Shown: positions 10,248 through 30,751 of the stretch, one piece after another
Numbering within the stretch: position 1 is the stretch's first letter
How the letters are laid out: every line of letters begins with the position of its first letter
NCBI GenBank assembly: GCA_013166775.1
Contig: JABLTJ010000003.1
Span: 32,001 to 96,000 of the forward strand
From: Promethearchaeati archaeon
Lineage (GTDB): Archaea; Asgardarchaeota; Heimdallarchaeia; Heimdallarchaeales; Heimdallarchaeaceae
Direction of reading: 5' to 3'
Length of the DNA: 64,000 bases
Position numbers and translations under genes: made by a program
Notes under the pieces: generated by a model
Told to the model about the DNA's origin: nothing
What the model saw: only the letters and a program-made list of their open reading frames with translations
Databases searched by the model: none

Positions 10248-10951
10248 AATTTAAAGAAGTTGTTTTTGAATATCCAGAGAAGAAATTTGGTTTATACAAT
10301 ATCACATTCAATATAGGCATTGGAACAAAATTTGCAGTTTGTGGAAGAAATGGAGCTGGAAAAACAACTTTACTTAGAATTTTGATGGGTTTAGAGGAAC
10401 ATCAAGCTGGTAACATTAAAGTTCAAGAATTAACATTAAACCGTGAAAATATAAAAGAAGTAAGAAAACGAATTGGTTTTGTTTTTCAAAACCCTGATTC
10501 ACAAGTTTTCTCTGCGAGTGTATATGAAGATGTTGCATTTGGACCAAGAAATTTGGGATTAGAAGAAGAAGAAGTGGAAAAGAGAGTTGAAGAAGCTTTG
10601 AAGAGTGTTGATTTATTGGATTGTACTCACGAATCACCGTTTCGATTATCCTTTGGTCAACGTAAAAGAGTCGCTATCGCAGGTGTACTGTCAATGGATC
10701 CATCTATAATAATTCTAGATGAACCATTCTCAAATCTAGATTATCCTACAAGAACTTCCTTAAAAAAACTTCTAGAAAACTCTGTTCTTAAAAGAGGAAA
10801 AACAATTATATTCACAACACATTATAGAAAGTTAATAAACGAATGGGCAGACAGTGTACTTTTCTTAGATGCGGGTAAAATCCTTTATCACGGAAATGTA
10901 GAAGATTTATCTATAATAGACGAAGCGGATAGATTCTTAGGACCTTTCTAA
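10232..10951 (+). CDS. cbiO: ECF transporter ATPase
   Basis: GRNGAGKTT, FQNPDSQ, LSFGQRKR, LDEP. Confidence 0.92.
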   Translation: MHHEIEFKEVVFEYPEKKFGLYNITFNIGIGTKFAVCGRNGAGKTTLLRILMGLEEHQAGNIKVQELTLNRENIKEVRKRIGFVFQNPDSQVFSASVYEDVAFGPRNLGLEEEEVEKRVEEALKSVDLLDCTHESPFRLSFGQRKRVAIAGVLSMDPSIIILDEPFSNLDYPTRTSLKKLLENSVLKRGKTIIFTTHYRKLINEWADSVLFLDAGKILYHGNVEDLSIIDEADRFLGPF

Positions 10952-11364
10952 AGTATTAGTTTAGAATATTTATCTACTACTTCAAGATACATTTCATTAC
11001 ATTTTTCTTCAGATAATTCCATTATCCCTTTTTCCATTCTTGCTGAAATTCTACTTACTAGTTCTTTCAGTTTATCTCGAAATTCAATAATTGGAAGAGT
11101 ATAGTACAAATATTTGTAACCACCTCTTTCTAGACTGGTCTTTTCTTTTTTTACAGCTCCAACATCCATTAATCTTTGAATTGATCTAACAATTGATGCT
11201 CTGTCTTTTCTGATTATTTCAGTGATTCCTTTAACATCTACTGGTTTGTTATGATTAATACATGCAAGTACTTCCAATTCATTTTCAGACAGTCCAAAAA
11301 GAGCTCTAACTATATCAAAGCAAGTTATGTCATCAGAATCAAAAGAAGAAAGAGGGAATGACAT
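10948..11364 (-). CDS. Winged-helix transcriptional regulator (TrmB-like HTH, COG3355-like) with three Cys
   Basis: FGLSENELEVL...DRASIVRSIQRL...GGYKYLY. The ATG at 11364 follows a GGTGA RBS. Confidence 0.82.
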   Translation of the reverse strand: MSFPLSSFDSDDITCFDIVRALFGLSENELEVLACINHNKPVDVKGITEIIRKDRASIVRSIQRLMDVGAVKKEKTSLERGGYKYLYYTLPIIEFRDKLKELVSRISARMEKGIMELSEEKCNEMYLEVVDKYSKLIL

Positions 11365-11375
11365 TTTTTTCACCT

Positions 11376-11750
11376 CTAGAAAGTATATACAACATCAGCT
11401 TCGAGGGATTCAGTTACTAAGAACATTCCTCCGACTATATCGTCAACTTCCTCAATGAAATCTTCACGTTTTAAATTATACATCTCAAGTACTGGACTGC
11501 AGACGTAAATTTTAGCACCTACTTCTTTAGCTTCACGTAAAGTTTCAATGTAGGGATTCTTGCCTTCCATTGGAATTAAGTTTTCAGGAACTCCTTTCTT
11601 AAGTAGTAATCCAGCTGACATAGTATAAATAATTGTTACTTCTGCATCAAGCATAGCTGCTAGTGATGCAAGATGTAAGGGGGGCTCAAGTCTTTCTTTG
11701 AATTCCTTTCCATGAGTTAATACGAAAACTATTTTCTGTTCAGGCATCAT
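11376..11750 (-). CDS. DsrE family sulfur carrier protein
   Basis: GAKIYVCS active-site Cys, C-terminal ADVVYTF. Confidence 0.85.
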   Translation of the reverse strand: MMPEQKIVFVLTHGKEFKERLEPPLHLASLAAMLDAEVTIIYTMSAGLLLKKGVPENLIPMEGKNPYIETLREAKEVGAKIYVCSPVLEMYNLKREDFIEEVDDIVGGMFLVTESLEADVVYTF

Positions 11751-11756
11751 TACCAC

Positions 11757-12230
11757 CTAGAAGTATAATGTGATATCTGCTTCTGATGCAAATTCTAAGA
11801 AGGTTGCAGCTCCACCAACTTCACATTCATCAATCAGCTGCTTTCTTTTGATTTTCATTACATCCATTGTCATTTGACAAGCAATGAGCTTTACACCAGA
11901 TTCAATAGAAATGTCCATCAATTCTTGTAATTTTGCAACATTAGCACCTTTCATCCAGCTTTTCATCATTGCTGTTGCCATATCAGTCATACCAGGAATC
12001 ATTCCTACAATTTGTGGTATTGGCATTGGCATAGCTGTTTGACCTACGGGAGTTACTTTGAGTTTGTTTAGTTTTTTCTTCTTCAACATATTTAATCCAA
12101 AGAATGTGAAGAATATACCTACTTCATAATCCATTGCTGCTGCAGTAGTGGCTAAGATTAATGGTGGGTATGCACCAGCAATATCTGCTTTTGAAGCTAT
12201 CATAGCTATTCGTTTTTTCTTTTCCGACAT
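11757..12230 (-). CDS. DsrE2-like (DrsE_2) sulfurtransferase
   Basis: AYPPLILATTAAAM, FFTFFGL, LIACQMTMDVM, GGAATFL. Confidence 0.9.
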   Translation of the reverse strand: MSEKKKRIAMIASKADIAGAYPPLILATTAAAMDYEVGIFFTFFGLNMLKKKKLNKLKVTPVGQTAMPMPIPQIVGMIPGMTDMATAMMKSWMKGANVAKLQELMDISIESGVKLIACQMTMDVMKIKRKQLIDECEVGGAATFLEFASEADITLYF

Positions 12231-12239
12231 TTTTTTCAC

Positions 12240-12479
12240 CTATTTAATTCTTTTAATGATATAGCGGTATACTCCGCCTTCTTCCGAGTTAGCAATAAGT
12301 TCATTTCCGGTAGATCTGGTCCATGCTTGGAAATCCGCAACTGATCCAGGATCTGTTGAGAAAACTTCAATATGCTCCCCTAATGAAATTTCCATAATTG
12401 CTTTCTTTGTTTTAAGGATTGGAAGAGGACAGCTTAACCCCTTTGCATTAAGAGTTTTAGCAATTTTTGTATCACTCAT
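12240..12479 (-). CDS. tusA: Sulfur carrier TusA
   Basis: LNAKGLSCPLPILKTKK, STDPGS. Confidence 0.92.
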   Translation of the reverse strand: MSDTKIAKTLNAKGLSCPLPILKTKKAIMEISLGEHIEVFSTDPGSVADFQAWTRSTGNELIANSEEGGVYRYIIKRIK

Positions 12480-12490
12480 TTTTTTCACCT

Positions 12491-13636
12491 TTATAATCGT
12501 CCTTTAATCAAGAATTTGAAATAAGCAAATTTGAACGCCTTCTTGAATAATCCAAACAAAAGAGTTGAATTTAATCCGTATTTTTTTGGAGGGTAGTTAT
12601 AACTGAAATGCAATAACATAGATTTTTTGAAGGATGTTAATATGAAACAGATTGTTAATCCCTTGTATTTAGCTTTGGGAGGTTTCCCTTTAAGTTCTGA
12701 AATTAAGTTTTTCACTAAAATATTAGAAGAGAAGTGCGAAACAGTTCCAGATTTTGAAACTGGTAAATTTGTTCCATCTCCGATTGCATAGATGTTGTCA
12801 TGTTCGTTGTGTTTCATTGTATATCTATCAGTAGTAATCCATCCTTCTCTATCACCCAATCCAGAGTCTTTTATGACATCTTGACCTTCATGAGGAGGTA
12901 TTATTATAAGACTTTCATATCCTATTTCTTCTCCTTCAAGAGATAGTACTTTGTTGTTTTCATTATCAATTGTTTCGAAATTGAAAAATGGAGTGAACTT
13001 GATGTTTCTTTTAGCAAAAAGTTTCTCTACTTTCTTAGCAGGTTCAGCCATTGTGAAAGCTCTTGATAATGGATAGAGAAATCTGATTGTTGATTTGTGT
13101 CTTATTCCTCTCTTACGTAGGTATTTATCTAATAAAAATGCGAATTCAATTGGAGTAGGTGGGCATTTGTAAGGTACGGTTGTCGGAGTAATAACAATAG
13201 TTCCTCCATCAAACTCCATAAGTTTTTCTTTTAGATGTTCAACTCCATCTTTGGTATAAAATTCGCAAACATTATCAGTTTGACAATATGCATCAAGTTT
13301 CTCTTGTGCCATTCTTGCTCCTGTTGCTAAGATAAGAAAATCGTATAGGATATTTTTCCCATTTTCTATTGTTACTATGTTTTTTTCAGGGTCTATCTTT
13401 GTAGCAATGTTTTTAATCCAGTTTACTTCTTTACTCAGTAATTTAGAAATTGGCTTTAAGAGATTAGAAATTGGTTTATCTTGAAAAACCCAAAATAAGT
13501 ACTCTGGTTCATAGATATTTTCTTCCTTTGGCTCAATCAAAGTGATTTTGACTTTTTTTCTATTTATTTTACGTGCTAAATGATTAGCTGTAGCTAAACC
13601 AGAAAAACCTCCACCTATTATAACTATATTTTTCAT
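12491..13636 (-). CDS. sqr: Sulfide:quinone oxidoreductase-like flavoprotein (type III-like)
   Basis: GGGFSG FAD motif, YDFLILATGA, PYKCPP, YAIGD, SKSG, TICFI. Confidence 0.85.
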   Translation of the reverse strand: MKNIVIIGGGFSGLATANHLARKINRKKVKITLIEPKEENIYEPEYLFWVFQDKPISNLLKPISKLLSKEVNWIKNIATKIDPEKNIVTIENGKNILYDFLILATGARMAQEKLDAYCQTDNVCEFYTKDGVEHLKEKLMEFDGGTIVITPTTVPYKCPPTPIEFAFLLDKYLRKRGIRHKSTIRFLYPLSRAFTMAEPAKKVEKLFAKRNIKFTPFFNFETIDNENNKVLSLEGEEIGYESLIIIPPHEGQDVIKDSGLGDREGWITTDRYTMKHNEHDNIYAIGDGTNLPVSKSGTVSHFSSNILVKNLISELKGKPPKAKYKGLTICFILTSFKKSMLLHFSYNYPPKKYGLNSTLLFGLFKKAFKFAYFKFLIKGRL

Positions 13637-13646
13637 TTTAGTTCCT

Positions 13647-13886
13647 TCAGTGTAGTTTTTTTACAATATAACGATCGAAACCGTCTTCATTGATTAGTGC
13701 AGTTAATTCATGTTTTGCTTTATCAACCCAAGCGGGAACATCTACTCTTGTTCCCTCATCAGAGCTTAGCAAAGCAATGAATTCTCCAACTTCTGCTTGA
13801 CGTATTGCTTTAATCAGTTCCATCATTGGTCCTGGGCAAAACGCCCCTCTTGCATCTACTTCTATAGCTATTTCATAATCAGTCAT
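13647..13886 (-). CDS. tusA: Second TusA-family sulfur carrier
   Basis: VDARGAFCPGPMMEL, SSDEGT. Confidence 0.9.
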   Translation of the reverse strand: MTDYEIAIEVDARGAFCPGPMMELIKAIRQAEVGEFIALLSSDEGTRVDVPAWVDKAKHELTALINEDGFDRYIVKKLH

Positions 13887-13903: not shown

Positions 13904-13947
13904 CGGTTGTGACGAGTTTAACATAATTGCTCACAACCGTATAAAAG
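13904..13947 (-). promoter_or_regulatory. TATA box and inverted-repeat operator of the tusA-sqr operon
   Basis: CGGTTGTGA (13904-13912), N18, TCACAACCG (13931-13939), directly downstream of minus-strand CTTTTATA (13947-13940). Confidence 0.65.
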
Positions 13948-14172: not shown

Positions 14173-14628
14173 CTATTTGACTATTTTCAGAATTAGTGCT
14201 GTTATTGGAAATGCTAGAAGAAGGACCCCTCCAATAATAGTTGGGATTCCAGCTTTAACAAGACCATATTCAGTAATCAGCAATATACCTATTGTGATAG
14301 CTACAACACTTGTAAAAGTAAGAAACACTACAAGTCTTTTATTTAATAAAGTTTCTTTCAAATTTTCCTTGCTAAAAGCTCTATATTCTGGATGTTCCTT
14401 AACAAACTCTCTGTGTTCCTTAATTTTTCTTATCACCCAAATAACTAAAGGAATCAAAAGAAGTATTCCAACACCCGAGAGAATTAAACCTAATAGAAGC
14501 TCTTCCATAACTAAAAACATTATTCCAAGACCTATGGGTAATGCAATTAAGCCAATAAGAAGGAAACCAAAAAAAATCTTAGCGAAAGTAATACCAAAAT
14601 CTCTAGGTACAGGTATGGGAATTACCAT
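14173..14628 (-). CDS. Membrane protein (4 TM)
   Basis: 151 aa, two hydrophobic hairpins separated by a charged loop. Confidence 0.75.
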   Translation of the reverse strand: MVIPIPVPRDFGITFAKIFFGFLLIGLIALPIGLGIMFLVMEELLLGLILSGVGILLLIPLVIWVIRKIKEHREFVKEHPEYRAFSKENLKETLLNKRLVVFLTFTSVVAITIGILLITEYGLVKAGIPTIIGGVLLLAFPITALILKIVK

Positions 14629-14803: not shown

Positions 14804-14879
14804 TTTTTATATATGTATAGGCTTCTGCGTATGATACGGTTGTCGAAAAGTTCGTTTCTAAACTGCAATAAAACGAACT
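14804..14879 (+). promoter_or_regulatory. Promoter and 5' region of the hdr-mvh operon
   Basis: TTTTTATATA box near 14804; ATACGGTTGT at 14834-14843; inverted repeat AGTTCGTTT (14849-14857), N13, AAACGAACT (14871-14879). Confidence 0.55.
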
Positions 14880-14901
14880 CTAAGTAATAACCGGTGAGAA
14901 T

Positions 14902-15594
14902 ATGATAGCAGTATGGATTAGTTTAATAGTTACTGCCATCTTGGTAGCTGGCTCAATTTCTTTACGTATTATTTCTAAAGAGGGAGAGGAAGGAAGAATC
15001 ATCAGACCTAATGAGAAATTATCTGATGAATTCATGGAGGATTTAGCGCTAGTACCTGGTGGTGATAAAATAAAAGAATGCATACAATGTGGCATTTGTT
15101 CTGCTAGTTGCCCTGTTTCTTTTGCTATGGATTATACTCCTAGACAAATATGGGAACTTCTGAGATCTGGGCAATTAAAAAAAGCACTAAATAGTCACAC
15201 TGTATGGTTGTGCTCTTCTTGTTACAAATGTGCTGTAAGATGTTCGACTGGCATCCCCTTTACTGACGTAATGTATGGATTAAAGCGCTTAGGTAAAGAG
15301 AAGAAATTGAATCAAAAGGGTATAAGTGGACCAATCTGGGCAAGTACTTTTCTTAACAATGTTCGTCGTTATGATCGAATCACTGATTTATTTGTAATGA
15401 TTATGTTTATGGTTAAGAAACAACCCTTCAGAATACTTTCAATCATTCCAGAATCTTGGGGAATGTTCACTAAAGGACGAGTTCCGTTTAAGAATCTCAT
15501 GATGCTTGTTCCTAAAACAATCAAATCTTTTTTCACTAAGAGCGATGTCAAGAAGATGATGAAATGGATAGATAAAAACGTGGAGATTAGTTAA
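14902..15594 (+). CDS. hdrC: Heterodisulfide reductase subunit C with an N-terminal TM helix
   Basis: CIQCGICSASCP, MDYTPRQI, WLCSSCYKCAVRC; GGTGA RBS. Confidence 0.92.
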   Translation: MIAVWISLIVTAILVAGSISLRIISKEGEEGRIIRPNEKLSDEFMEDLALVPGGDKIKECIQCGICSASCPVSFAMDYTPRQIWELLRSGQLKKALNSHTVWLCSSCYKCAVRCSTGIPFTDVMYGLKRLGKEKKLNQKGISGPIWASTFLNNVRRYDRITDLFVMIMFMVKKQPFRILSIIPESWGMFTKGRVPFKNLMMLVPKTIKSFFTKSDVKKMMKWIDKNVEIS

Positions 15595-16491
15595 ATGACT
15601 GAAGTAGAAAAAAAGGGAGGATATACTTACTTTCCCGGATGTGCTCTAGAAGGAATTCAAGAACCTTACAAAAAATCTACAGAAGCAGTTGCTAAAGAAT
15701 TAGGGATTGTCTTAAACGAGCTTAAATCATGGAACTGTTGTGGAACTCCCTCCATCATTGGTGTAGATGAGATTAAGGCTCTAGCTTTGTCTGCTAGAAA
15801 TCTTGCCTTAGCAGCAAAAGAAGGAGATCAAATTGTAAGTCCCTGTAACACTTGTTTTGGTACTCTGAAAAAAGTGAATAGATACATGGAATATAATAAA
15901 GAAATTTACTCTGCAATAAACGGTTCCCTGAATGCTGCGGGATTATCTTATGAACCTAACACTGTAGAAGTAAGACATTTTGTAGATATCTTAGTAAATG
16001 ATTATGGAATAGAAGAGATTAGGAAAAGAGTCAAAAGACCTCTTACAGGTTTCCGTGTAGTTCCATTTTATGGATGTCATTTTTCTAGACCTTTTGGTGA
16101 ACATGATGATGTAGAAAATCCAAGAAAAATGGATGATTTAATCAAAATTTCTGGAGCAGAATGGGTAGATTATCCAATGAAATTTACCTGTTGCGGAGCT
16201 ACTCTTCCAGTAACTGATCCAAAGATTGGTTATCGACTTATACATGAGATTCTCAGATCAGCGAAGGAAGTAAAAGCTGATTTCATAATTACATCGTGTC
16301 CTCTCTGTCAAACTAACTTAGAAATGTTTCAGAGAGTAGCAGGAAATATGTATGGTGGCAAGCACCACATTCCTGTTTTATATGTTACTCAATTAGTTGG
16401 ATATGCACTTGGGCTTTCAGTAAAGGAACTGATGATAGATAAAACTCTGGTCAAGCCAAAAAGACTTATTGAAAAAAGTGAGGTGGTCTAA
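15595..16491 (+). CDS. hdrB: Heterodisulfide reductase subunit B
   Basis: YFPGC, WNCCG, PCNTC, FYGC, TCCG, SCPLCQ (two CCG domains). Confidence 0.95.
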   Translation: MTEVEKKGGYTYFPGCALEGIQEPYKKSTEAVAKELGIVLNELKSWNCCGTPSIIGVDEIKALALSARNLALAAKEGDQIVSPCNTCFGTLKKVNRYMEYNKEIYSAINGSLNAAGLSYEPNTVEVRHFVDILVNDYGIEEIRKRVKRPLTGFRVVPFYGCHFSRPFGEHDDVENPRKMDDLIKISGAEWVDYPMKFTCCGATLPVTDPKIGYRLIHEILRSAKEVKADFIITSCPLCQTNLEMFQRVAGNMYGGKHHIPVLYVTQLVGYALGLSVKELMIDKTLVKPKRLIEKSEVV

Positions 16492-17774
16492 TGACATCTG
16501 AAGCAGATCCAAGAATTGGAGTATTTGTGTGTAAATGTGGAAAAAACATTGCAGCAAAAGTCGCAGTTAATGAAGTAGCAGAATATGCAAAAACATTAGA
16601 TAATGTAGAGTTTAGTCAAGTAAATACTTTTACCTGTTCAGCAGTAGGACAAAATGCTATCAAGGATGCCGTAAAGGAACACAATCTAGATAGAGTAGTT
16701 GTAGCGAGTTGCTCACCTACTATGCACGAAAGCACTTTTCAAGCTGCTACTGAAGAAGCTGGAATAAATAGATATCAATTCCAAATGGCAAACATAAGAG
16801 AATTCTCTTCATGGGTTACCAAAGATCCAGCTGAAGCTACAAGCAAAGCTAAGAGAATAGTAACAGGTGCCGTAAGAAGAGTCGCATTTCATGAACCACT
16901 TGAAGAAGTAATCGTTCCAGTTAATCCAAATACGTTAGTCATTGGTGGTGGAATCGCAGGAATTTCTGCTGCATTAAAAATTGCAGATGCTGGCCATAAA
17001 GTTATCTTAGTAGAAAAAGAACCTTCTATAGGTGGAAGGATGGCTCAACTAGATAAAACTTTTCCAACATTGGATTGTGCAGCATGTATTCTATCACCTC
17101 GAATGGTAGATGTTGGAAAGCATCCAAACATAGAGATGATGGCTTATTCTGAAGTCGTAGCTGTTGATGGTTACATAGGAAATTTCAATGCTAAAATAAA
17201 GAACAAAGCTAAGTCAGTAGATGAAGAAAAGTGTACTAGTTGTGGAGATTGTTGGGAAAACTGTCCCGTTAGATATACTGCTTATACAGAACCAGCAAAA
17301 ATAGTTCCTGCATTGCTTTATGATGAGAAAACCTTCTTAGATAAAATCATAACCAAGTACAAAGATAGACGAGGAGCTATTATGCCAGTTCTTGAGGCAA
17401 TTAATAGTGAATACCGTTATCTTCCTGAAGAGAGCTTGAAATATGTTGCAGTACAAATGGATTATCCTCTCAGTTCTATTTATAGAATTGCTACATTCTA
17501 CAATGCATACAGCTTAGAACCAAGAGGAGATCATCTGATAAGCGTCTGTATGGGAACAACATGTCATGTTAAAGGAGCTCCAAGGCTTGTTGAAAGGCTA
17601 AAGAGCGAGTTGAAAATTGATATTGGTGAGACTACAGATGACGGTAAATTTACTTTAGAAACAGTTCGATGTTTGGGCTGTTGTAGCTTAGCTCCGGTGA
17701 TAACGATAGATGGTGAAGCTTTCGGTAATATGAAACCGAGTAGAATTCCAAGGGTGCTTGATAAATATGAGTGA
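16491..17774 (+). CDS. Fusion of the HdrA N-terminal half and a NuoE/HydC [2Fe-2S] domain
   Basis: RIGVFVCKCG, VVASCSP, GGGIAG, DKTFPTLDCAACIL, CTSCGDCWENCP; then ATFYNAYSLEPRG...CMGTTCH...CLGCC (NuoE). Confidence 0.92.
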   Translation: MTSEADPRIGVFVCKCGKNIAAKVAVNEVAEYAKTLDNVEFSQVNTFTCSAVGQNAIKDAVKEHNLDRVVVASCSPTMHESTFQAATEEAGINRYQFQMANIREFSSWVTKDPAEATSKAKRIVTGAVRRVAFHEPLEEVIVPVNPNTLVIGGGIAGISAALKIADAGHKVILVEKEPSIGGRMAQLDKTFPTLDCAACILSPRMVDVGKHPNIEMMAYSEVVAVDGYIGNFNAKIKNKAKSVDEEKCTSCGDCWENCPVRYTAYTEPAKIVPALLYDEKTFLDKIITKYKDRRGAIMPVLEAINSEYRYLPEESLKYVAVQMDYPLSSIYRIATFYNAYSLEPRGDHLISVCMGTTCHVKGAPRLVERLKSELKIDIGETTDDGKFTLETVRCLGCCSLAPVITIDGEAFGNMKPSRIPRVLDKYE

Positions 17775-19674
17775 TATAAAACCAGCTGATATTAATATTC
17801 TGAGAGCTAAGGGAGAAGAATCTCTTTATCCAGATAGACCTAAAATTGGAATTAGCATGGCTTCATGCGGATTAGCTGCTGGTGCTGGGAAAATTTTGGA
17901 AACAATTGAAGGAGAATTGAAGAACCTAGATCTTGATTGGATTGTTACAAAAACAGGATGTCCTGGTTTTTGCCAAAAAGAACCTCTATTATATTATCAT
18001 GCACCTGGAAAAGAGAAAATTTACTTCGGTGAATTAACGGAGAAGAAAGCAAAAGATTTAGTCAAAGAGTTATCCGAAAATACAGTAGATAGAGATTTTG
18101 CTACATGGAAAATTATGTCTGATGTTACAATTGATGATAAGACATTGTTCATTAGTGAAGAAACAGAAATCGAAGATATTCCATTATACCAAGAATATGA
18201 TTTTTTTAAAAAACAACATAAAATTGCTCTTAGAAACTGTGGTTTCATTGATCCTCAAAGTATAGAGGAATATATCGCAAAAGGAGGGTATGCAGCTTTC
18301 CAAAAAGCTTTGAAAATGAAACCAGACGAGGTTATTGATTTCATTAAGAAATCAGGACTACGTGGAAGAGGTGGAGGAGGATTCCCTACGGGATTAAAGT
18401 GGGAACTCTGTTCCAAAGAAGATTCAGATATTAAGTATATTATCTGTAACGCAGATGAAGGAGATCCTGGAGCATATATGGATAGAAGTATACTTGAGGG
18501 TGATCCTCACTCTATAATCGAAGGGATGCTGATTGGTGCCTATGGTATCGGATCTAATGAAGGCTATATCTATGTAAGAGCTGAATATCCATTAGCAATA
18601 GAATTGCTAGATATTGCAGTTCAACAAGCTCGTGAAAATGGTTTTCTTGGAGCAAATATCCTCAATTCAGGTTTTAGTTTTGATATTAATCTTGCATATG
18701 GAGCAGGTGCTTTTGTTTGTGGTGAAGAGACAGCTCTAATAGCATCAATAGAAGGTAGACCAGTTGAACCAAGAATAAGACCTCCCTTTCCATCACAATC
18801 AGGTTTATGGGAGAAACCTACCAACATTAACAATGTAGAAACTTGGGCTAATGTACCCCCAATTATTCTGAAAGGACATGATTGGTATTCCTCTTTAGGA
18901 ACAGAAACAAGTAAGGGAACAAAAGTATTTTCTCTAGTTGGTAAAATTAACAACACAGGACTAGTGGAAGTTCCTATGGGAATTACTTTGCGAGAAATCA
19001 TCTACGATGTAGGTGGAGGTATAATCGATAATAAGAAATTCAAAGCTATTCAAACAGGTGGTCCATCAGGTGGATGCCTTCCTGAAAGCCATATTGATCT
19101 ACCAGTGGATTATGAGAGTCTCAAGGAAGCTGGGTCTATAATGGGGTCAGGAGGAATGATTGTTGTTGATGAAGACACTTGCATTGTGGACCTTGCGAAA
19201 TTCTTTATAGATTTTACTAGAGATGAATCTTGTGGTAAATGTGTTTCTTGTCGTGATGGATTAGATGCATGTCACGAAATTCTGAATAAAATAACTGAAG
19301 GAAAATCTGCTTTAGAAGACCTAGATTACTTAGAAGAGCTTGGACAATCAATTGTTGATTTCTCAATGTGCGGTTTAGGAACCACAGCTCCAAATCCTGT
19401 TCTGACAACTCTACGATATTTCAAAGATGAATATATAGCTCATATCGAGAAAAAAGAATGCTCAGCTAAAGTTTGCAAAGCGTTAATTACCTATGAAATA
19501 ATCAAAGATAATTGTGTTGGATGCCAGGCATGTGCTAGACTTTGTCCAGAAAATGCAATAAAAGGGCAGAAAGATAAAGTCCACAAGATTAACCAAGAAC
19601 TCTGTATAAAATGCGGAGTCTGTTTTGATACGTGTAGATACGATGCAATTCTAATAAGGAGTGGTGATAAATAA
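17767..19674 (+). CDS. NuoF/HydB-type FMN/NAD(H) subunit with extra Fe-S domains
   Basis: LRGRGGGGFPTG, NADEGDPGAYMDR, GAGAFVCGEET, GGPSGG, SCGKCVSCR; N-terminal thioredoxin-like [2Fe-2S] domain and C-terminal 2x[4Fe-4S]. Confidence 0.95.
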   Translation: MSDIKPADINILRAKGEESLYPDRPKIGISMASCGLAAGAGKILETIEGELKNLDLDWIVTKTGCPGFCQKEPLLYYHAPGKEKIYFGELTEKKAKDLVKELSENTVDRDFATWKIMSDVTIDDKTLFISEETEIEDIPLYQEYDFFKKQHKIALRNCGFIDPQSIEEYIAKGGYAAFQKALKMKPDEVIDFIKKSGLRGRGGGGFPTGLKWELCSKEDSDIKYIICNADEGDPGAYMDRSILEGDPHSIIEGMLIGAYGIGSNEGYIYVRAEYPLAIELLDIAVQQARENGFLGANILNSGFSFDINLAYGAGAFVCGEETALIASIEGRPVEPRIRPPFPSQSGLWEKPTNINNVETWANVPPIILKGHDWYSSLGTETSKGTKVFSLVGKINNTGLVEVPMGITLREIIYDVGGGIIDNKKFKAIQTGGPSGGCLPESHIDLPVDYESLKEAGSIMGSGGMIVVDEDTCIVDLAKFFIDFTRDESCGKCVSCRDGLDACHEILNKITEGKSALEDLDYLEELGQSIVDFSMCGLGTTAPNPVLTTLRYFKDEYIAHIEKKECSAKVCKALITYEIIKDNCVGCQACARLCPENAIKGQKDKVHKINQELCIKCGVCFDTCRYDAILIRSGDK

Positions 19675-21449
19675 TGGTGAATATAACTATAAACGATCAA
19701 GAATATGATATTGAAGAAGGAAAAACAATTCTTGAAGCTGCTCAAGCAATGGGATTGGAAATACCGACTCTGTGCTATCATAAAGCTCTTAGTCCGTATG
19801 GTGCTTGTCGTCTATGTACTGTAGAAATTGAACTCAACGGAAGAACAATGTATCAAGCTTCATGCCAATATCTCGTTGAAGAAGGTATGAACATTCAAAC
19901 TGAGAGTGAACGAGTTGTTAATGGCCGTAAGAAGATGATTGAACTTCTTCTAGCAAGAGCTCCGGAAGCAGAAGATATTTTGGATCTTGCTTATAAATAT
20001 GGTGTCAAAGATACAAGATTCTTAAAGGAATTTGATGACGTCTGTATTTTATGTGGTCTTTGTATTCGTGTCTGTCATGATAGAATGGGTTTCAAAGCTA
20101 TTGAATTCATTAACCGTGGAATCGAAAGAAAAGTCAGCCTACCCTTTGAAGATTTCCATGAAGTTTGCAGAACTTGTGGTTCCTGTTCAACATACTGCCC
20201 AACAGGTGCTAAAGCAGTGCAACTAGAAAATCTCACACATCATACTCCAAGACCAATATTATCAGAATTTGATCAAGGATTAGCAACTAGACCAGCAGTT
20301 TATACACCATTTCCACAGGCTGTACCAAAAATCCCAGTAATTGACAGAAATAATTGCATACACTTCCAGACTGGTGAATGTAAGATTTGTCAAGATGTAT
20401 GTGAACCTGATGCTATAAATTATGAACAAGAAGATGAAATTGTAGAAAGGGAAGTAGGAGCAATCGTCGTTACTACAGGTTTTGATCCTTTTGATCCTAA
20501 CAGACTACCTCAATATGGTTATGGAAAATATCCTAATGTAATAACTTCATTAGAATTTGAGAGAATCTCAAGTGCAAGTGGTCCAACAGAAGGTGAAATC
20601 ATTTTCCCAGGAGTTACTGAAATAAAAAGTGCTGCAATTCTCCATTGTATAGGTAGTAGAGATGAAAACACAAACAGATACTGTTCCAGACTCTGTTGTA
20701 TGAATGCCCTCAAAGCTGCGAATCTTATAAGAGATAAATTACCAGATTCTCATGTTTATGAATTTTATATAGACATTAGAGCTGCAGGTAAAGGGTATGA
20801 GGAATATTATCAAAAGATGCTTAGAAGTGATATACGAATTATAAGAGGAAAAGTAGCTGAAATCACCAACATTCCAGATTTGCCTGAAGATGAAGGACGG
20901 TTAACTGTAGTAGCAGAAGACACTCTTCTTGGAGCAATTTTGAGAGTACCAGTTGATCTTGTGATTCTAATGGTTGGTATTGAACCCAAAAAAGATGCTA
21001 GAGATTTAGCCCATATACTCCATTTACCATGTACTGAAGAAGGATTCTATAATGAAAAGCATCCAAAGCTAGCACCAACTGAAACTGTTATAGAAGGAAT
21101 CCATGTAGCTGGTGCATGTCAATTTCCAAAGGATGTACCTGATTCTGTAGCGCAAGGAGAATCTGCTGCAGCTGCTGTTCTTTCAAAGATTGCAAGAGGA
21201 GAATATATTACGGAACCAACGAAAGCTGAAATAGTGGACGATCATTGTTCTGGATGTAGAAACTGTATAGGATTATGCCCCTATTTGGCAATAAGCTTTG
21301 ATGAGGAAGAGGAAATTGCAAAGATAGATTCAGCTCTTTGCCAAGGATGTGGAGTCTGTGTAGCCAGTTGTCCATCTGGAGCAATAATTCACAGAGGTTA
21401 TACTGACAAACAGATCTTTGCGGAAATTGAAGGAGTACTAGAAAGGTGA
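19674..21449 (+). CDS. Fusion of NuoG/HydA N-terminal Fe-S domains and the HdrA C-terminal half
   Basis: IPTLCYH..GACRLC, CILCGLCIRVC, CRTCGSCSTYCP; then EFDQGL..YTPFPQAVP, HCIGSRD, YCSRLCCM, KGYEE, RGKV, GACQFPKD and a C-terminal ferredoxin. Confidence 0.93.
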   Translation: MVNITINDQEYDIEEGKTILEAAQAMGLEIPTLCYHKALSPYGACRLCTVEIELNGRTMYQASCQYLVEEGMNIQTESERVVNGRKKMIELLLARAPEAEDILDLAYKYGVKDTRFLKEFDDVCILCGLCIRVCHDRMGFKAIEFINRGIERKVSLPFEDFHEVCRTCGSCSTYCPTGAKAVQLENLTHHTPRPILSEFDQGLATRPAVYTPFPQAVPKIPVIDRNNCIHFQTGECKICQDVCEPDAINYEQEDEIVEREVGAIVVTTGFDPFDPNRLPQYGYGKYPNVITSLEFERISSASGPTEGEIIFPGVTEIKSAAILHCIGSRDENTNRYCSRLCCMNALKAANLIRDKLPDSHVYEFYIDIRAAGKGYEEYYQKMLRSDIRIIRGKVAEITNIPDLPEDEGRLTVVAEDTLLGAILRVPVDLVILMVGIEPKKDARDLAHILHLPCTEEGFYNEKHPKLAPTETVIEGIHVAGACQFPKDVPDSVAQGESAAAAVLSKIARGEYITEPTKAEIVDDHCSGCRNCIGLCPYLAISFDEEEEIAKIDSALCQGCGVCVASCPSGAIIHRGYTDKQIFAEIEGVLER

Positions 21450-21931
21450 TGAAAATGGTAGTAACAGATGAAAAAACTATTGAAAATACTGATTGGGAAC
21501 CGAGGATTGTAGGATTCTTATGCCGGTGGTGTTCATATGCTGGTGCAGATCTTGCAGGTATAAGTAGACTAGATTACCCACCAAATTCCATCTTTATTAA
21601 AGTACCTTGCACAGGACGTGTCGATCCTACTTTCGTATTGAAAGCTTTTGCTGATGGAGCTGATGCAGTATTCATATCTGGATGCCATCTAGGCGATTGT
21701 CATTATATCGAAGGAAATTACAAAACTATGCGACGATTTGAAATACTCAAAGAAACACTAAAGCAATTGGGTATACATGAGAGAAGGTTTCAACTGACAT
21801 GGATATCAGCATCTGAAGCCCAGAAATTAAAAGAATTTCTCACAAGTATGACATCTTCAATAAAAGAATTAGGACCTATACAATTGCCGATTTTAGCACC
21901 TTTACAAAAGGAGGATAAACAAGATGACTGA
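21449..21931 (+). CDS. mvhD: Hydrogenase delta subunit ([2Fe-2S] adaptor)
   Basis: FLCRWCSYAGADLAG, VPCTGRVD, GCHLGDCHY, WISASE. Confidence 0.95.
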   Translation: MKMVVTDEKTIENTDWEPRIVGFLCRWCSYAGADLAGISRLDYPPNSIFIKVPCTGRVDPTFVLKAFADGADAVFISGCHLGDCHYIEGNYKTMRRFEILKETLKQLGIHERRFQLTWISASEAQKLKEFLTSMTSSIKELGPIQLPILAPLQKEDKQDD

Positions 21932-22880
21932 GAAACTCAAACTAGCCTTCTATTGGGCAGCGAGTTGTGGTGGCTGTGAAGTAGCTATCTTGGATATTGA
22001 TGAAAAAGTCCTTGATGTAGTAGCAATCGCTGATATTGTGTTCTGGCCAGTAGCCATTGATATTAAATACAATGATGTAAGAGCTATGGACGACAAAAGC
22101 ATTGATGTCACCTTCTTTAATGGTTCGATAAGAACTGAAGAGAATGCTGAACTAGCTCGATTATTGAGAGCAAAATCAAAAACATTGGTTGCATTTGGTT
22201 CCTGTTCTTGCTATGGTGGAGTTATAGGTTTAGGAAATCTTTCCTCTAAAGAGGAGTTGTTACATCGAGCCTATATTACAAGTGATTCAACTGATAATCC
22301 TGAGCAGATAAAACCTCAGCTTCATTACAAGGAAGTTCATATTCCTGATGTTCTACCAGCTAATTATGCTTTGGATCAGGTTGTAGATGTTGATTATTAC
22401 TTACCAGGATGTCCACCAAAAGATACACTAGTTTGGAGTGCTATAGAAGCCATTGCTTCTGGAAATCTTCCTGCTAAGGGTGCTGTTTTAGCTCCCAATC
22501 TTACTGTATGCCATGATTGTCCTCGAGAGAAACATGATGAACGAACAATTAAGGAATTCAAAAGAGTTTATAACTTCCAACCTGATGAAACAAAATGTCT
22601 TCTGGAACAAGGTTTAATCTGTATGGGACCTGCTACACGTTCAGGTTGCGATGCTTCTTGTGTTTCTGTAAATATGCCATGTCGAGGTTGTATGGGACCA
22701 ACAGATCAAGTATTTGACCAAGGAGCTAAGATGATTTCCGTGTTAGGAGGACTAATAGATTCTGATGATCCTGAAGAAGTTAAAGAAATAGTTAGTACTA
22801 TAGTTGATCCAGTTGGAACTTTATACTATTTTGGAGTATCCAAGTCTCTAATTAAGCAAAGTGGTGTTAAAAGGAGGTAA
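21924..22880 (+). CDS. mvhG: [NiFe]-hydrogenase group 3c small subunit
   Basis: SCGGC, AFGSC, PGCPP, CHDCPR, CLLEQGLICMGPATRSGC, PCRGC. Confidence 0.92.
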   Translation: MTEKLKLAFYWAASCGGCEVAILDIDEKVLDVVAIADIVFWPVAIDIKYNDVRAMDDKSIDVTFFNGSIRTEENAELARLLRAKSKTLVAFGSCSCYGGVIGLGNLSSKEELLHRAYITSDSTDNPEQIKPQLHYKEVHIPDVLPANYALDQVVDVDYYLPGCPPKDTLVWSAIEAIASGNLPAKGAVLAPNLTVCHDCPREKHDERTIKEFKRVYNFQPDETKCLLEQGLICMGPATRSGCDASCVSVNMPCRGCMGPTDQVFDQGAKMISVLGGLIDSDDPEEVKEIVSTIVDPVGTLYYFGVSKSLIKQSGVKRR

Positions 22881-22884
22881 AATA

Positions 22885-24339
22885 ATGACAGAAAAAACAG
22901 TAAAACATATTGTTATTGATCCAGTAACTCGTCTAGAAGGGCATGCCAAAATTGACATTATTCTAGATGATAAAGGAAAGATAGAAGATGTATACTTACA
23001 AGTACCAGAATTCAGAGGATTTGAAAAATTCTGTGAAGGTAGAAGAGTGGAAGAGCTTCCAAGAATAACACCAAAAATCTGTGGTGTTTGTCCTATGGCA
23101 CATCATATGGCATCTGCAAAAGCGTTAGATATGGCATTTGGGGTTGAACCAACATCAGTTGCTCATAAACTTAGAGAGCTTATGTACAATGCCTATGTAT
23201 TTGAGGATCATACACTTGCCTTCTATTTCCTACAAGCTCCAGATTTTGTAGTTGGTCCATCAGCACCTCCAGCTGAGAGGAATATTCTAGGAGTTATAGC
23301 TAAAGTAGGTGTAGATATTGGAAAGGAAGTCATAAAACATCGAGCTTATGGACAACAAATGTTACAGATTCTTACTGGAAGTAAAATCTTTCCAGCAGTT
23401 GCAATTCCAGGTGGAGTTAGCAAAGGATTATCCGAAGAAGACAGAGACAAAATGATACCTTGGGCTGAGAGTTGTGTTGAGTTTTCAAAATTTACACAAC
23501 AGTTATTGCATGATGTAGTTCTCGAAAACAAAGATTATGTAGACTTGATTCTCTCTGATACATACAATCTGAAAGCATATAATATGGGACTAGTTGATGA
23601 GAATAACAAAATCAACTTCTATGATGGACAAATTAGAGTTACATCTCCTGAAGATAAGGAATTTGTAAAATTTGAATCCAAAGATTATCTAGAACACGTT
23701 GCTGAAGTACCAATCCCACATAGTTATGTCAAACGAACTTATCTCAAGAAATTAGGTTTGGAAAATGGATTATATCGAGCTGGACCTCTAGCAAGATTGA
23801 ATGCATCAGAAGGTATGACTACACCTTTAGCACAAAAAGAATACGAGAAATTCTATAGTGTTTTAGGAGGAAAACCAGCAAATCAAACCCTAGCTTACAA
23901 TTGGGCACGCGTAATTGAACAGCTCTATGCTGCTGAAAGAGTTCTTGAATTATTGAATGATCCAGAAATTACAAGTGATGATTTCAGAACCTTAGCAACA
24001 GAAGTACCAACTGAAGGAGTCGGTGTAGTTGAAGCATGCAGAGGAACACTTTATCATCATTACAAATGTGATGAGAAAGGATTGGCTAAGGAGGTAAACC
24101 TAATTGTGGCTACAACTAATAATAAATTTGCATTAGAGAAATCAGTCGAAAAAGCTGCTAGAGGTTTAATAGAATCAGAGCAACCAGATCAAGGAATACT
24201 GAATATGGTAGAAATGTCATTCAGAGCTTATGATCCTTGTATGGCTTGTGCAACACATTCTCTGCCAGGAAAAATGCCATTGACTATCAATCTTTATGAT
24301 AAGAACAAAAATCTTTTACGTAAAATTCAAAGGAAATAA
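22885..24339 (+). CDS. mvhA: [NiFe]-hydrogenase group 3c large subunit
   Basis: TRLEGH, L1 motif ICGVC, L2 motif RAYDPCMACATH plus a cleavable C-terminal tail. AGGAGG RBS before the ATG at 22885. Confidence 0.95.
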   Translation: MTEKTVKHIVIDPVTRLEGHAKIDIILDDKGKIEDVYLQVPEFRGFEKFCEGRRVEELPRITPKICGVCPMAHHMASAKALDMAFGVEPTSVAHKLRELMYNAYVFEDHTLAFYFLQAPDFVVGPSAPPAERNILGVIAKVGVDIGKEVIKHRAYGQQMLQILTGSKIFPAVAIPGGVSKGLSEEDRDKMIPWAESCVEFSKFTQQLLHDVVLENKDYVDLILSDTYNLKAYNMGLVDENNKINFYDGQIRVTSPEDKEFVKFESKDYLEHVAEVPIPHSYVKRTYLKKLGLENGLYRAGPLARLNASEGMTTPLAQKEYEKFYSVLGGKPANQTLAYNWARVIEQLYAAERVLELLNDPEITSDDFRTLATEVPTEGVGVVEACRGTLYHHYKCDEKGLAKEVNLIVATTNNKFALEKSVEKAARGLIESEQPDQGILNMVEMSFRAYDPCMACATHSLPGKMPLTINLYDKNKNLLRKIQRK

Positions 24340-24424: not shown

Positions 24425-26092
24425 ATGAAAGTAAGAAGGTTTCTGAAGACTTTACTCTTATTAGTATTGATTCTTAATCTGAGATCAGTTAATACAATAC
24501 TATCCAATGCAGGAATTGTAAAGGAACAGAATAATTCTTCTTATATCTGGTTATGGGAAGAATTGTATGGAGCTCCAAGTAATATTCCTGGAGAAGACGT
24601 TGTTTTCTGGGGAGAGAGCTTAGGACCTTATCATAATTATACTGAAATGGTAAACAAACTAGTGTCATTAAACGAAAGTTTCCCAGAGATTGTTGATTTG
24701 TTCTCACTTGGCAAGACATGGAGAGGAAACGAAATATGGTGTGTAAAATTAACAAATGAAACAATTACAACTGCAAAATCTGAATACTACATTGTAGGTA
24801 ATCATCATGCACGCGAATTAATCTCTGTAGAAAACTCCCTCTACTTTCTAGATAGAATTATTTATGAGACACAATTTGGTAATTTCACTAATCTTCTTTC
24901 TAACAAGGAACTATATGTTATACCTATGTTAAATCCTGATGGTTTATCAATTATACACACTTTTCCAGAACAAAGAAAAAATCTTCGTGAAATTGATGAC
25001 GATGAGGATGGCACGGTTATTGATGAGTATGAGATTGTATATTTTTGGAATACTACATCAAATACCTCTGAAAAGATAGAAATAGACCTTGATGGAGATT
25101 CCTTTCAAGGAGAGGATTTACCAGGAGGTGTAGATTTAAATCGAAATTATCTTGCTTTTTGGGATGTTTCAGGTGGGTCATCCCCTGTAAAGGTAGAATC
25201 AACTTATCGTGGAGAAGCTCCATTCAGTGAGAATGAAACGCAGATAATTAGGAATTTCATGCGAGGACATTTCTTTAACTTAGCAGTGAGTCTTCATAGT
25301 GGGATCCAAGCAATTATTTCTCCTTGGGGGTATAATAGTTCATATCCTATCGCTGATGGTGATGAATTTCAAGCTCTTCTTTCAGAATTAAAAAGCATTA
25401 CACTTTTACCACTCTGGGAAGAAATTCCTGGAAATTATAATGCTTCAGGAACCTGGGATGATTATTGTTACTTGTATCATGATATTATGTGTTTCACACT
25501 AGAAACATATGGTGCTTTTCCATCGGGTTCATTTTTTGATGATTACAATCCTTCTGGTGATCAAATCATAGCAAATTGTGAAATGGTTTTCCCAGCTTTA
25601 ACTTATTTGGCAATGGAACCTCAGCTCACATACTCAAATACACCTCCATCTCTTGATGTTACAAATCCATCAAGAGAGAATCAAGTGTTTGATAATTATA
25701 CTATTAGATGGTCTATGAATGATATTGAAGAAGATTCTCTAAACTGTTCAGTACTTGTTTCTAGAAATGGTTGGAATTGGACAGTATTAGCTTCAAATAT
25801 TATTGGAAGTACATCCATATTCTGGGATGTCACAGATGTTACTCCAGGGTCATATTATTTGAAAGTTGCAGTTTCAGATGGAGAAAACTGGATTTTTGAT
25901 GTAAGTGATATAAAGCTAAATGTAAAAAAAGAACCACCCAAATCCAGAGCTTCTTTCTGGATTTTAGCTGTTTTTATAGGAACTTCTGCTGTTGTGTATC
26001 TATTCTTCTATATCAGAAAAACAAAAAAGATAGGAAAAGATTGGGAACCTGATTCATATAAAGAATCTCAAGCAGAAAAAAAGAAAAAATAA
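24425..26092 (+). CDS. Secreted, membrane-anchored M14 zinc carboxypeptidase
   Basis: Signal peptide, HHARE, LNPDG, GVDLNRN, SLHSG, LETYG, beta-rich domain, C-terminal TM. Confidence 0.92.
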   Translation: MKVRRFLKTLLLLVLILNLRSVNTILSNAGIVKEQNNSSYIWLWEELYGAPSNIPGEDVVFWGESLGPYHNYTEMVNKLVSLNESFPEIVDLFSLGKTWRGNEIWCVKLTNETITTAKSEYYIVGNHHARELISVENSLYFLDRIIYETQFGNFTNLLSNKELYVIPMLNPDGLSIIHTFPEQRKNLREIDDDEDGTVIDEYEIVYFWNTTSNTSEKIEIDLDGDSFQGEDLPGGVDLNRNYLAFWDVSGGSSPVKVESTYRGEAPFSENETQIIRNFMRGHFFNLAVSLHSGIQAIISPWGYNSSYPIADGDEFQALLSELKSITLLPLWEEIPGNYNASGTWDDYCYLYHDIMCFTLETYGAFPSGSFFDDYNPSGDQIIANCEMVFPALTYLAMEPQLTYSNTPPSLDVTNPSRENQVFDNYTIRWSMNDIEEDSLNCSVLVSRNGWNWTVLASNIIGSTSIFWDVTDVTPGSYYLKVAVSDGENWIFDVSDIKLNVKKEPPKSRASFWILAVFIGTSAVVYLFFYIRKTKKIGKDWEPDSYKESQAEKKKK

Positions 26093-28639: not shown

Positions 28640-29569
28640 TTAGATTGCTATGCCTGTTAGGACTTTAATTAATAGTCTTATTGCTGCTACGACTGCCAAT
28701 AACCAAAAACCTGATAGAATCCATTCTGATTTTATTTTATGAATGTATCTGGGAACTATATTTGCTGCAATGACTGTTCCTAATGCCCAGATTATAACAA
28801 TGTCCCATCTCACAGTACCCCACCCACTAGAGAAAATTCTGGTTCCAATAGCGAATGGATTTGCAATTAAGATTGTGAGTGTAGAAGTAGCTGCTGCAAT
28901 TCCAGCTGGAATACCTAAAGCCATAGTTAAAATTGGCATAAAAACTACACCTCCTCCTAGACCAAGCATTCCTCCTACAAATCCTCCTAAAACAGCAATA
29001 AAAACTCCTGGAACAAGTTTGGCTTTATATTTGTGGACATTTCCATGACGATCTGTAATTTCTCGAACTAATACAGTTTGCTTCCACCAAGGTCTATCTT
29101 CTTGGATTTCTTCTTTTTTAATGATTTCTTCGTTGTTATTGTTCTTCTTGTACTTTGCTACAAATATTGTTGTTATTTTGTAAAGTGCTATAGTAATCAT
29201 TGTTACAGCAAAGATGATTTGTAAAGTGTCTATTTTATATTTTTTTTCAGATAACCATTTTGAGAGAGTAGAACCAGCTATAGCTCCAGGAACTGCAAAT
29301 AAGACGAATGAAAAGGCAATTCTATAATCTATCCGTTTCTCTCTCGCATAAGATAAAGTTCCACTCAATGCAGTGAAAAATATTATTCCAAGCGAAGTTG
29401 AAGTTGCTGTAAATGTATCAAGTTCTAAAACATTGGAATAAATAAGTAATAATAAAGGAACATTAAGTAATCCTCCACCAATGCCGAATGTAGGAGCAAT
29501 GGTTCCGACAAGTAATCCTAAAGCAAATAATGAGAAACCTATAGCTACAGAGAATTCAAAGAAAACCAT
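28640..29569 (-). CDS. TauE/SafE family sulfite exporter
   Basis: FGIGGGLLNVP and LGLGGGVVFMP repeat motifs, ATSTSL; about 8 TM. Confidence 0.9.
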   Translation of the reverse strand: MVFFEFSVAIGFSLFALGLLVGTIAPTFGIGGGLLNVPLLLLIYSNVLELDTFTATSTSLGIIFFTALSGTLSYAREKRIDYRIAFSFVLFAVPGAIAGSTLSKWLSEKKYKIDTLQIIFAVTMITIALYKITTIFVAKYKKNNNNEEIIKKEEIQEDRPWWKQTVLVREITDRHGNVHKYKAKLVPGVFIAVLGGFVGGMLGLGGGVVFMPILTMALGIPAGIAAATSTLTILIANPFAIGTRIFSSGWGTVRWDIVIIWALGTVIAANIVPRYIHKIKSEWILSGFWLLAVVAAIRLLIKVLTGIAI

Positions 29570-29705
29570 ATTTTCACCTTTTAACAAATTCAAGAAAAGA
29601 CCTATATTTAAAAATTCAATTATTTACCCAATTTCTACTAAGATACTTTTGTAAAATAATTTTCGAAAAATAAAGATAGATTCTAGATTATGTAAACCTT
29701 GAAAA

Positions 29706-30635: not shown

Positions 30636-30751
30636 TTCCACTAGATGCACCTAATCATTTATTCATTGAAATATATTGTGTTTAAAACTCTAGTGTAAGA
30701 ACTATTTTTCAAGTAGAAATCATTTTAAATTATTAGAAAAATAAATAACTA

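Follow-up and report, generated by a model that had tools for sequence, protein, structure and literature searches.

An operon for sulfur transfer occupies positions 10948–13886 of the window, our term for the whole stretch of 64,000 nucleotides analysed here (positions 32,001 to 96,000 of contig JABLTJ010000003.1, GenBank assembly GCA_013166775.1), from an Asgard archaeon of the family Heimdallarchaeaceae. Its six genes encode two TusA proteins, a type III-like sulfide:quinone oxidoreductase (SQR), two sulfur carriers of the DsrE kind and a regulator, and nearby on the opposite strand stands a block of genes for heterodisulfide reductase (Hdr) and [NiFe] hydrogenase. The explanation we favour, which we consider somewhat probable, is that the operon is a self-contained unit for sulfide and persulfide handling, inherited vertically within the Heimdallarchaeaceae and not built around the neighbouring Hdr-hydrogenase. 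Coordinates are those of the window; G000 stands for this genome, G029 for its sister genome and f1 for its own family. The operon reads from right to left as follows:

13647..13886, minus strand: tusA1, the operon's first gene (79 amino acids; CPGP motif; Pfam TusA, 4e-17)
12491..13636, minus strand: type III-like SQR (381 amino acids; Pfam Pyr_redox_2 and FCSD_central)
12240..12488, minus strand: tusA2 (82 amino acids; CPLP motif; Pfam TusA, 3.7e-22; likely start ATG 12479)
11757..12239, minus strand: DsrE2B-like sulfur carrier (160 amino acids; Pfam DrsE_2, 2.5e-47; likely start ATG 12230)
11376..11756, minus strand: DsrE3A-like sulfur carrier (126 amino acids; Pfam DsrE, 9.3e-10)
10948..11373, minus strand: Lrs14/Sta1-like winged-helix regulator (141 amino acids; TrmB/MarR-type winged helix-turn-helix by Pfam; likely start ATG 11364)

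The six minus-strand open reading frames (ORFs) are separated by gaps of 0–10 nt, and their positions and Pfam identities agree with the first-pass annotation of this DNA, which had described six packed genes in the order tusA-sqr-tusA-dsrE2-dsrE-regulator. That annotation had also drawn attention to a start context shared by three of the genes. The 14-mer AGGTGAAAAAAATG does occur there, with exactly three copies in the window (0 expected), but it is ordinary for the genome, which has 10 copies, and is unconserved in relatives, where each cluster has 0–2 copies and that of the closest relative has 0. We do not regard it as special: a Shine-Dalgarno sequence (GGTGA), an A-rich spacer and ATG make up a ribosome-binding context of the general kind. 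Translation probably begins at the ATG located 9 nt after each listed GTG.

Synteny was compared over 20 kb around the DsrE2 orthologues in 36 genomes of the class. These orthologues (57–94% identity) occur in 26 of the 30 own-family genomes and in families f3, f4, f5 and f6 of the class; in f5 the cluster is present in 12 of 22 genomes. Among the 36 genomes the same genes are always grouped into two sub-modules, tusA1-sqr and tusA2-dsrE2-dsrE3. These follow one order in the own family and the reverse order in f4 and f5, and the gene order tusA1-sqr is kept in f1, f3, f4 and f5. Besides the five core genes themselves, no neighbour is conserved across this set. Within the family the arrangement is a TPR gene, an unknown gene, cbiMQO in some genomes, and then the regulator, dsrE3, dsrE2, tusA2, sqr and tusA1. 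In 22 of the 24 family genomes compared, tusA1 abuts a gene for an M14 carboxypeptidase with no hdr-mvh genes between them, and an unknown gene, a UDP-GlcNAc epimerase gene and TauE follow. We conclude that the sulfur operon is probably old, self-contained and vertically inherited in Heimdallarchaeia, and that the neighbouring Hdr-hydrogenase was not what it was assembled around. The nearest database relatives of the SQR, and of the HdrA-N/NuoE protein of the neighbouring block, carry the source name Candidatus Heimdallarchaeaceae; by their source names, relatives are known mainly from sediment metagenomes. Two genomes of the family, G015 and G016, are complete.

Two side observations concern the surroundings and the distribution of these genes. 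Two tandem genes for TauE/SafE-family exporters lie at 28640–30650 of the window, and one of the two copies is conserved in almost every relative, where it flanks the sulfur cluster at a distance of ∼4–5 kb. In family f19 (loci L065–L068) a DsrE2-like domain is found within open frames of ∼830–856 amino acids beside a TusA gene; these frames may encode a fused multi-domain sulfur-carrier protein.

The SQR matches the NCBIfam SQR_III model (NF049943) over model positions 1–392 of 406 (2e-105, 353 bits), and its FAD-binding Rossmann fold is recognized by Pyr_redox_2 (4.6e-19) and NAD_binding_9, with GGGFSG at residues 8–13. It aligns with human SQOR over residues 4–352 (1.3e-49), including both redox-cysteine motifs, KC(P)PTP and TIC, whose human counterparts we take to be the catalytic Cys201 and Cys379. 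The two redox cysteines are kept among orthologues (Cys158 in 33 of 33, Cys330 in 32 of 33), the C-terminal tail is basic and aromatic, rich in Lys and Phe, and database relatives include an Archaeoglobus protein at 45% identity. Both TusA proteins exceed the PF01206 cut-off of 28.6 bits (TusA1, 62.3 bits; TusA2, 78.4 bits) and weakly match the NCBIfam models for Escherichia coli TusA and YedF. Each carrier has a cysteine that is invariant in its orthologues: Cys17 of TusA1 (37/37), Cys20 of TusA2 (36/36), Cys121 of DsrE2 (38/38) and Cys86 of DsrE3 (31/31).

The 160-residue carrier belongs with the soluble DsrE2B proteins (PF13686, 161 bits; top Protein Data Bank match 2QS7, 4.9e-13), although the subgroup assignment is approximate because its score against the NCBIfam SulfCarrDsrE2 equivalog, 182 bits, is under the cut-off of 210. 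The 126-residue carrier belongs with DsrE3A, its top structural match being 3MC3 (SSO1125; 2.6e-16 over residues 6–123). The structures 2QS7 and 3MC3 are respectively DsrE2B and DsrE3A of Saccharolobus (PMC11094781). The operon holds the genome's only copy of dsrE2 and is its only dsrE2/dsrE3/sqr cluster. A third TusA, on contig C50 (L178:4435-5295), is the C-terminal domain of a 286-residue rhodanese-TusA fusion; as a fusion in an unrelated context it was rejected as part of the relay.

The last gene encodes a regulator that matches the NCBIfam models Sta1 (2.5e-16) and Lrs14 (1.3e-12), besides Pfam TrmB and MarR. Three of its cysteines are kept in orthologues: Cys18 (23/23), Cys38 (21/23) and Cys125 (23/23). 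This regulator type is restricted to f1; in f5 the final gene encodes a regulator of the AsnC type. Upstream of tusA1 is a candidate site of action:

13904..13939, no strand: operator-like palindrome, CGGTTGTGA, 18 nt, TCACAACCG, directly adjoining the TATA box of tusA1

In this genome and its sister the two 9-bp arms match perfectly, and an imperfect palindrome, CGGTTGTGCA...TGTCATAATCG, stands at the same position across the family. One similar palindrome only was found elsewhere in the genome, on contig C75; its adjoining ORFs match no family, and we rejected it as a regulon member.

From the observed anatomy and conservation of the operon we infer the following steps. The type III-like SQR, predicted to be membrane-associated, would oxidise H2S at a site formed by FAD with Cys158 and Cys330. 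The sulfane sulfur would then pass from SQR to TusA1, on to TusA2 and finally to the DsrE2B-like and DsrE3A-like carriers, presumed trimeric, in the form of cysteine persulfides or possibly thiosulfonates. The carriers would buffer reactive sulfur and make it available to the cell. The Lrs14/Sta1-like protein would act as a repressor, occupying the palindrome just after the TATA box until released by persulfidation of its conserved cysteines.

Several observations weigh against this explanation. The SQR's 353 bits fall below the NF049943 cut-off of 525; that model, the only one NCBIfam has for type III, describes a selenoprotein subtype, so that the low score does not exclude a Cys-type SQR. 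COX1, cytochrome bd and the futalosine-pathway enzyme MqnA were not found in this 88.7%-complete genome (3.85 Mb, 32.9% G+C), a search that did not cover the classical menaquinone pathway or anaerobic reductases. A quinone sink for the SQR is thus not evident, as neither a terminal oxidase nor MqnA was found; the genome encodes a NuoH homologue. A search of it for a DsrC/TusE acceptor found none. Finally, the SQR gene is absent from the sister genome and from G027, both of which keep the carriers, and the carriers must therefore use another sulfur source too.

This dispensability of SQR in two relatives agrees with an alternative in which the system is a thiosulfate (thiosulfonate) carrier of the kind known from Metallosphaera cuprina: thiosulfate would be bound by DsrE3A and handed on to TusA, with SQR as an accessory and the sulfur destined for assimilation or further conversion. 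Its two DsrE-type proteins are nearest to the right structures (the 126-residue protein to DsrE3A, 3MC3; the 160-residue protein to DsrE2B, 2QS7), thiosulfonate transfer from DsrE3A to TusA is established (PMC11094781), and the genome has a YeeE/YedE-type transporter gene, on contig C96. We nevertheless think this alternative improbable, given that the transporter gene is unlinked to the sulfur cluster, that most of the class keeps the SQR gene beside tusA1, and that no thiosulfonate-consuming sHdr or LbpA system was found in the genome. The candidate sHdr/LbpA partner that we considered was rejected, as the search turned up only a cluster of GlcD, HdrD-like and GcvH genes on contig C97. That cluster (L179:7392-10431; G000:C97:83391-86430) is a single minus-strand run encoding an HdrD-like protein (Fer4_8 and two CCG domains), a GlcD-like FAD protein and a GcvH-like protein; other GcvH-like genes also lie away from the window.

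Another alternative makes the operon a biosynthetic donor, in which TusA and DsrE would supply tRNA thiolation or the synthesis of molybdenum cofactor with persulfide formed from ambient sulfide, by analogy with the E. coli TusA-TusBCD relay. Membership of the TusA family, with the weak matches to E. coli TusA and YedF, would suit such a role, as would the sediment origin of most relatives, since sulfide is common there. Set against this are the failure to find TusE/DsrC, the several cysteine-desulfurase-family genes of the genome, which give a conventional source of persulfide, and the patchy loss in f5 (12 of 22 genomes keep the cluster), which speaks against an essential role. A dedicated inducible regulator together with an SQR also fits stress handling better than housekeeping. 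We judge a biosynthetic role to be a minor possibility, and retain sulfide and persulfide handling as the preferred explanation.

The remaining alternative concerns the neighbouring block, for which further features of the window are needed:

14173..14628, minus strand: gene for a membrane protein of 151 amino acids, between tusA1 and hdrC, outside the conserved operon
14836..14846, plus strand: half-site ACGGTTGTCGA, downstream of the hdrC TATA box
14902..24339, plus strand: hdrC-hdrB-(HdrA-N/NuoE)-NuoF-(NuoG-N/HdrA-C)-mvhD-mvhG-mvhA, identified by Pfam
24425..26092, plus strand: M14 carboxypeptidase gene (Pfam Peptidase_M14), the ancestral neighbour of tusA1

The gene content confirms by Pfam the initial description of an HdrBC tied to a hydrogenase. 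The two operons had further been called divergent; they do lie on opposite strands, but are not directly divergent, the 151-residue membrane protein (no significant Pfam family) being encoded between tusA1 and hdrC. The sister genome lacks this gene, and its tusA1-hdrC spacer is 212 bp. HdrB is of the methanogen type, with two Pfam CCG domains (1.5e-29) and a match to HdrB of 8RVU (1.7e-50), and HdrC carries an N-terminal hydrophobic helix. With only one hdrC-hdrB pair, an HdrA that is split, and a hydrogenase, the block does not match an sHdr core (hdrC1B1A-hyp-hdrC2B2 with linked LbpA and lipoate ligase).

Among the 24 family genomes, hdr-mvh genes stand between tusA1 and the M14 gene only in this genome and in its sister. 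A family-wide search found an orthologue of the window HdrB (72% identity) only in the sister genome; the other 26 matching genomes have only a paralogue of 31–37% identity, which this genome also has, on contig C76. A tree built from 52 HdrB sequences places the proteins of the window and the sister inside a mostly bacterial clade from hdrCBA-mvhDGA operons, apart from the C76 paralogue. Orthologues of NuoF (70% identity) in G035 and G012 are on contigs without relay genes. We conclude that the block is a recent, lineage-specific insertion shared by two sister species, the product of one evolutionary event.

Base composition was rejected as evidence of transfer. The block has 36.8% G+C, in the top 0.3% of 9.4-kb windows, but the resident hdr-mvh genes on C76 are similarly rich at 35.7%. 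Third-position G+C is 0.19–0.24 for seven of the eight block genes and 0.31 for hdrC, against 0.22 for the flanking M14 gene; since third positions are near the flanks except in hdrC, the G+C excess of the block reflects protein composition.

The block is not identical in the two genomes. At the site of window positions 16491–21449 the sister genome encodes a single HdrA of 1125 amino acids (L039:5848-9225), in which a GltD/NfnB-like module (Fer4_20 and Pyr_redox_2) replaces the split NuoE/NuoF/NuoG-N of this genome. Different NAD(P)H modules therefore occupy the same HdrA insertion point in close relatives.

The first-pass annotation had tied the two operons together functionally, proposing that HdrB may act on protein-bound persulfide or polysulfide. 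On that view HdrB of the neighbouring Hdr-Mvh-NAD(H) complex would, in this lineage, receive persulfide carried by TusA or DsrE, and sulfur reduction, or the reverse reaction, would be coupled to H2 or NADH; the complex, as an acquired one, would have been recruited to a place next to a resident relay. We consider this unlikely, though several observations point its way. The insertion put the block right next to the one dsrE2/dsrE3/sqr cluster that the genome has, and the membrane helix of HdrC could place the complex near a monotopic SQR. ComA (PF02679) and McrA (PF02249), positive in methanogen controls, were not found in the 88.7%-complete genome, which fits the premise that CoM-S-S-CoB is unavailable; this classical heterodisulfide is therefore unlikely as a substrate. 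The same chemistry has been proposed in a preprint (10.1101/2025.07.22.663070).

The promoters also hint at a connection. The octamer ACGGTTGT is one arm of the tusA1 operator; 21 copies occur in the 3.85 Mb, of which four are intergenic, and two of those are the tusA1 operator and the hdrC promoter. Downstream of the hdrC TATA box it forms part of the half-site ACGGTTGTCGA, which is kept in this genome and its sister amid an otherwise diverged spacer. The hdrC motif is only a half-site, however, and could be a scar or remnant of the insertion event. Between this half-site and the hdrC start there is a second inverted repeat at 14862–14894 (AGTTCGTTT, 14 nt, AAACGAACT), partly conserved in the sister genome.

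Synteny counts against the link. Linkage of the operons in relatives had been set beforehand as the test, and in 22 of the 24 family genomes the cluster is unlinked to hdr-mvh, so that the relay persists without this Hdr; the adjacency is one event common to two sister genomes. We also examined 80 HdrA loci from many other phyla with 10-kb flanks, ∼17 of them of the NuoF-containing design. Relay genes were found by tblastn at 1 locus, and purpose-built hidden Markov models (HMMs) found TusA at 2 and DsrE at 1 of the 80, against 39/40 and 40/40 positive controls recovered. A scan of metagenomes for the upstream flanks of close HdrB relatives returned only contigs too short to inform. An uncultured deltaproteobacterium has, immediately upstream of its split HdrA-N/NuoE gene, a small ORF (L115:9668-9961) that the TusA HMM matches weakly (4.6e-5).

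The link between sulfur carriers and Hdr does recur in other Asgard lineages, which lends it some support. In f20 an operon runs tusA, dsrE, dsrF, dsrH, dsrE2-like, hdrC, hdrB, hdrA, mvhD, a gene for an Oxidored_q6 protein, an FrhB/GltD fusion and tusA (L077:8449-18304, L184:7231-19108 and L072), with an AsnC regulator divergent from the co-directional cluster. By their coordinates, 37 genomes of this family have the DsrE2-like gene and the HdrB orthologue on one strand, the former 0.6–1 kb upstream. In the f17 genome G127 (L069:6513-20000), genes for LplA, a GcvH-like protein and DsrH/F/E are divergent from dsrE2, hdrC and hdrB, followed by a 1014-residue HdrA fusion, tusA and a 1145-residue HdrA/MvhD fusion, an sHdr/LbpA-like arrangement. 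In G043 of f3 (L053:192-3573 and L180:6982-8949), dsrE2, a dsrE-like gene, tusA, mvhD, a 441-residue HdrA-like gene and a full HdrA gene follow on one strand, and this dsrE2-HdrA run takes the place of the SQR gene in related genomes. The DsrE2-linked HdrBs of f20 and f17 nevertheless belong to a different clade of the 52-sequence tree from the window HdrB, which groups with bacterial-type hdrCBA-mvhDGA operons.

Persulfide as the HdrB substrate thus draws support from the shared half-site, from the failure to find ComA and McrA and from the other Asgard linkages, but the synteny fails within the family. In this genome and its sister it would mean that a membrane-tethered Hdr-[NiFe]-hydrogenase-NAD(P)H complex obtained by horizontal transfer came under a resident persulfide-sensing regulator and uses TusA- or DsrE-bound persulfide of the relay at HdrB, a combination we regard as doubtful. 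If true, it would be an evolutionary snapshot of non-methanogen Hdr complexes gaining a protein-persulfide substrate. What HdrB acts on in the many non-methanogens with Hdr-Mvh is a long-standing open question; with an adjacency that goes back to a single recent event, this locus cannot settle it alone, and f20 offers the stronger genomic argument for linking persulfide to Hdr.

The locus is of wider interest on other grounds. Hydrogen and sulfur metabolism in Asgard archaea bears on models of eukaryote origin. Since neither an oxidase nor a futalosine pathway is evident in these archaea, their retention of a type III SQR makes one ask where its electrons go. The sister genomes moreover form a useful pair: one has the SQR gene and the other lacks it, and their HdrA proteins contain different NAD(P)H modules. 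The locus also offers a candidate operator shared by the two operons.

In our literature searches we came upon no published account of a Heimdall SQR-TusA-DsrE cluster. The closest described relative, compared by families and not by sequences, is the type III SQR-TusA-DsrE2 operon of Methylacidiphilum fumariolicum SolV (MFUM_v2_0219-0221), which is up 1.7-fold in sulfide-adapted cells and was assigned to sulfide detoxification (PMC10205796). The same three families share one operon in both organisms; beyond them, the archaeal operon encodes another TusA, a carrier like DsrE3A and an Lrs14/Sta1-like regulator that bears cysteines. SolV lives aerobically and possesses a ba3 oxidase, whereas the host here is an Asgard archaeon in whose genome no terminal oxidase or futalosine gene was found.

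A dsrE2B-dsrE3A-tusA triad next to sHdr genes is known from Sulfolobales and M. cuprina (Liu et al. 2014; PMC11094781), and transfer of thiosulfonate from DsrE3A to TusA was established there (Liu et al. 2014, as summarised in PMC11094781). The window resembles it in its relatives of 2QS7 and 3MC3 with one conserved cysteine each, in an adjacent TusA with a CPxP motif and in the nearby Hdr-type complex. It differs in that this complex combines a methanogen-type HdrB with an [NiFe] hydrogenase and a NuoEFG-like module, in place of hdrC1B1A-hyp-hdrC2B2 with LbpA, and in that the adjacency is recent and divergent and forms no conserved operon.

The persulfide-to-Hdr idea is not new, being already present in the preprint on the Lokiarchaeon Nerearchaeum, where a group 3c hydrogenase-Hdr is proposed to reduce TusA- and DsrE-bound persulfides, the same chemistry as that of the first-pass annotation (10.1101/2025.07.22.663070). 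The f20 clusters share with the window a physical linkage of sulfur carriers to HdrCB, HdrA and MvhD in Asgard archaea; no hydrogenase large subunit was detected in the f20 loci sampled. Unlike the window arrangement, they are co-directional, occur in at least 37 genomes, and have DsrEFH, a distant DsrE2 (35–45% identity), an HdrB of a different clade and an FrhB/GltD-type module.

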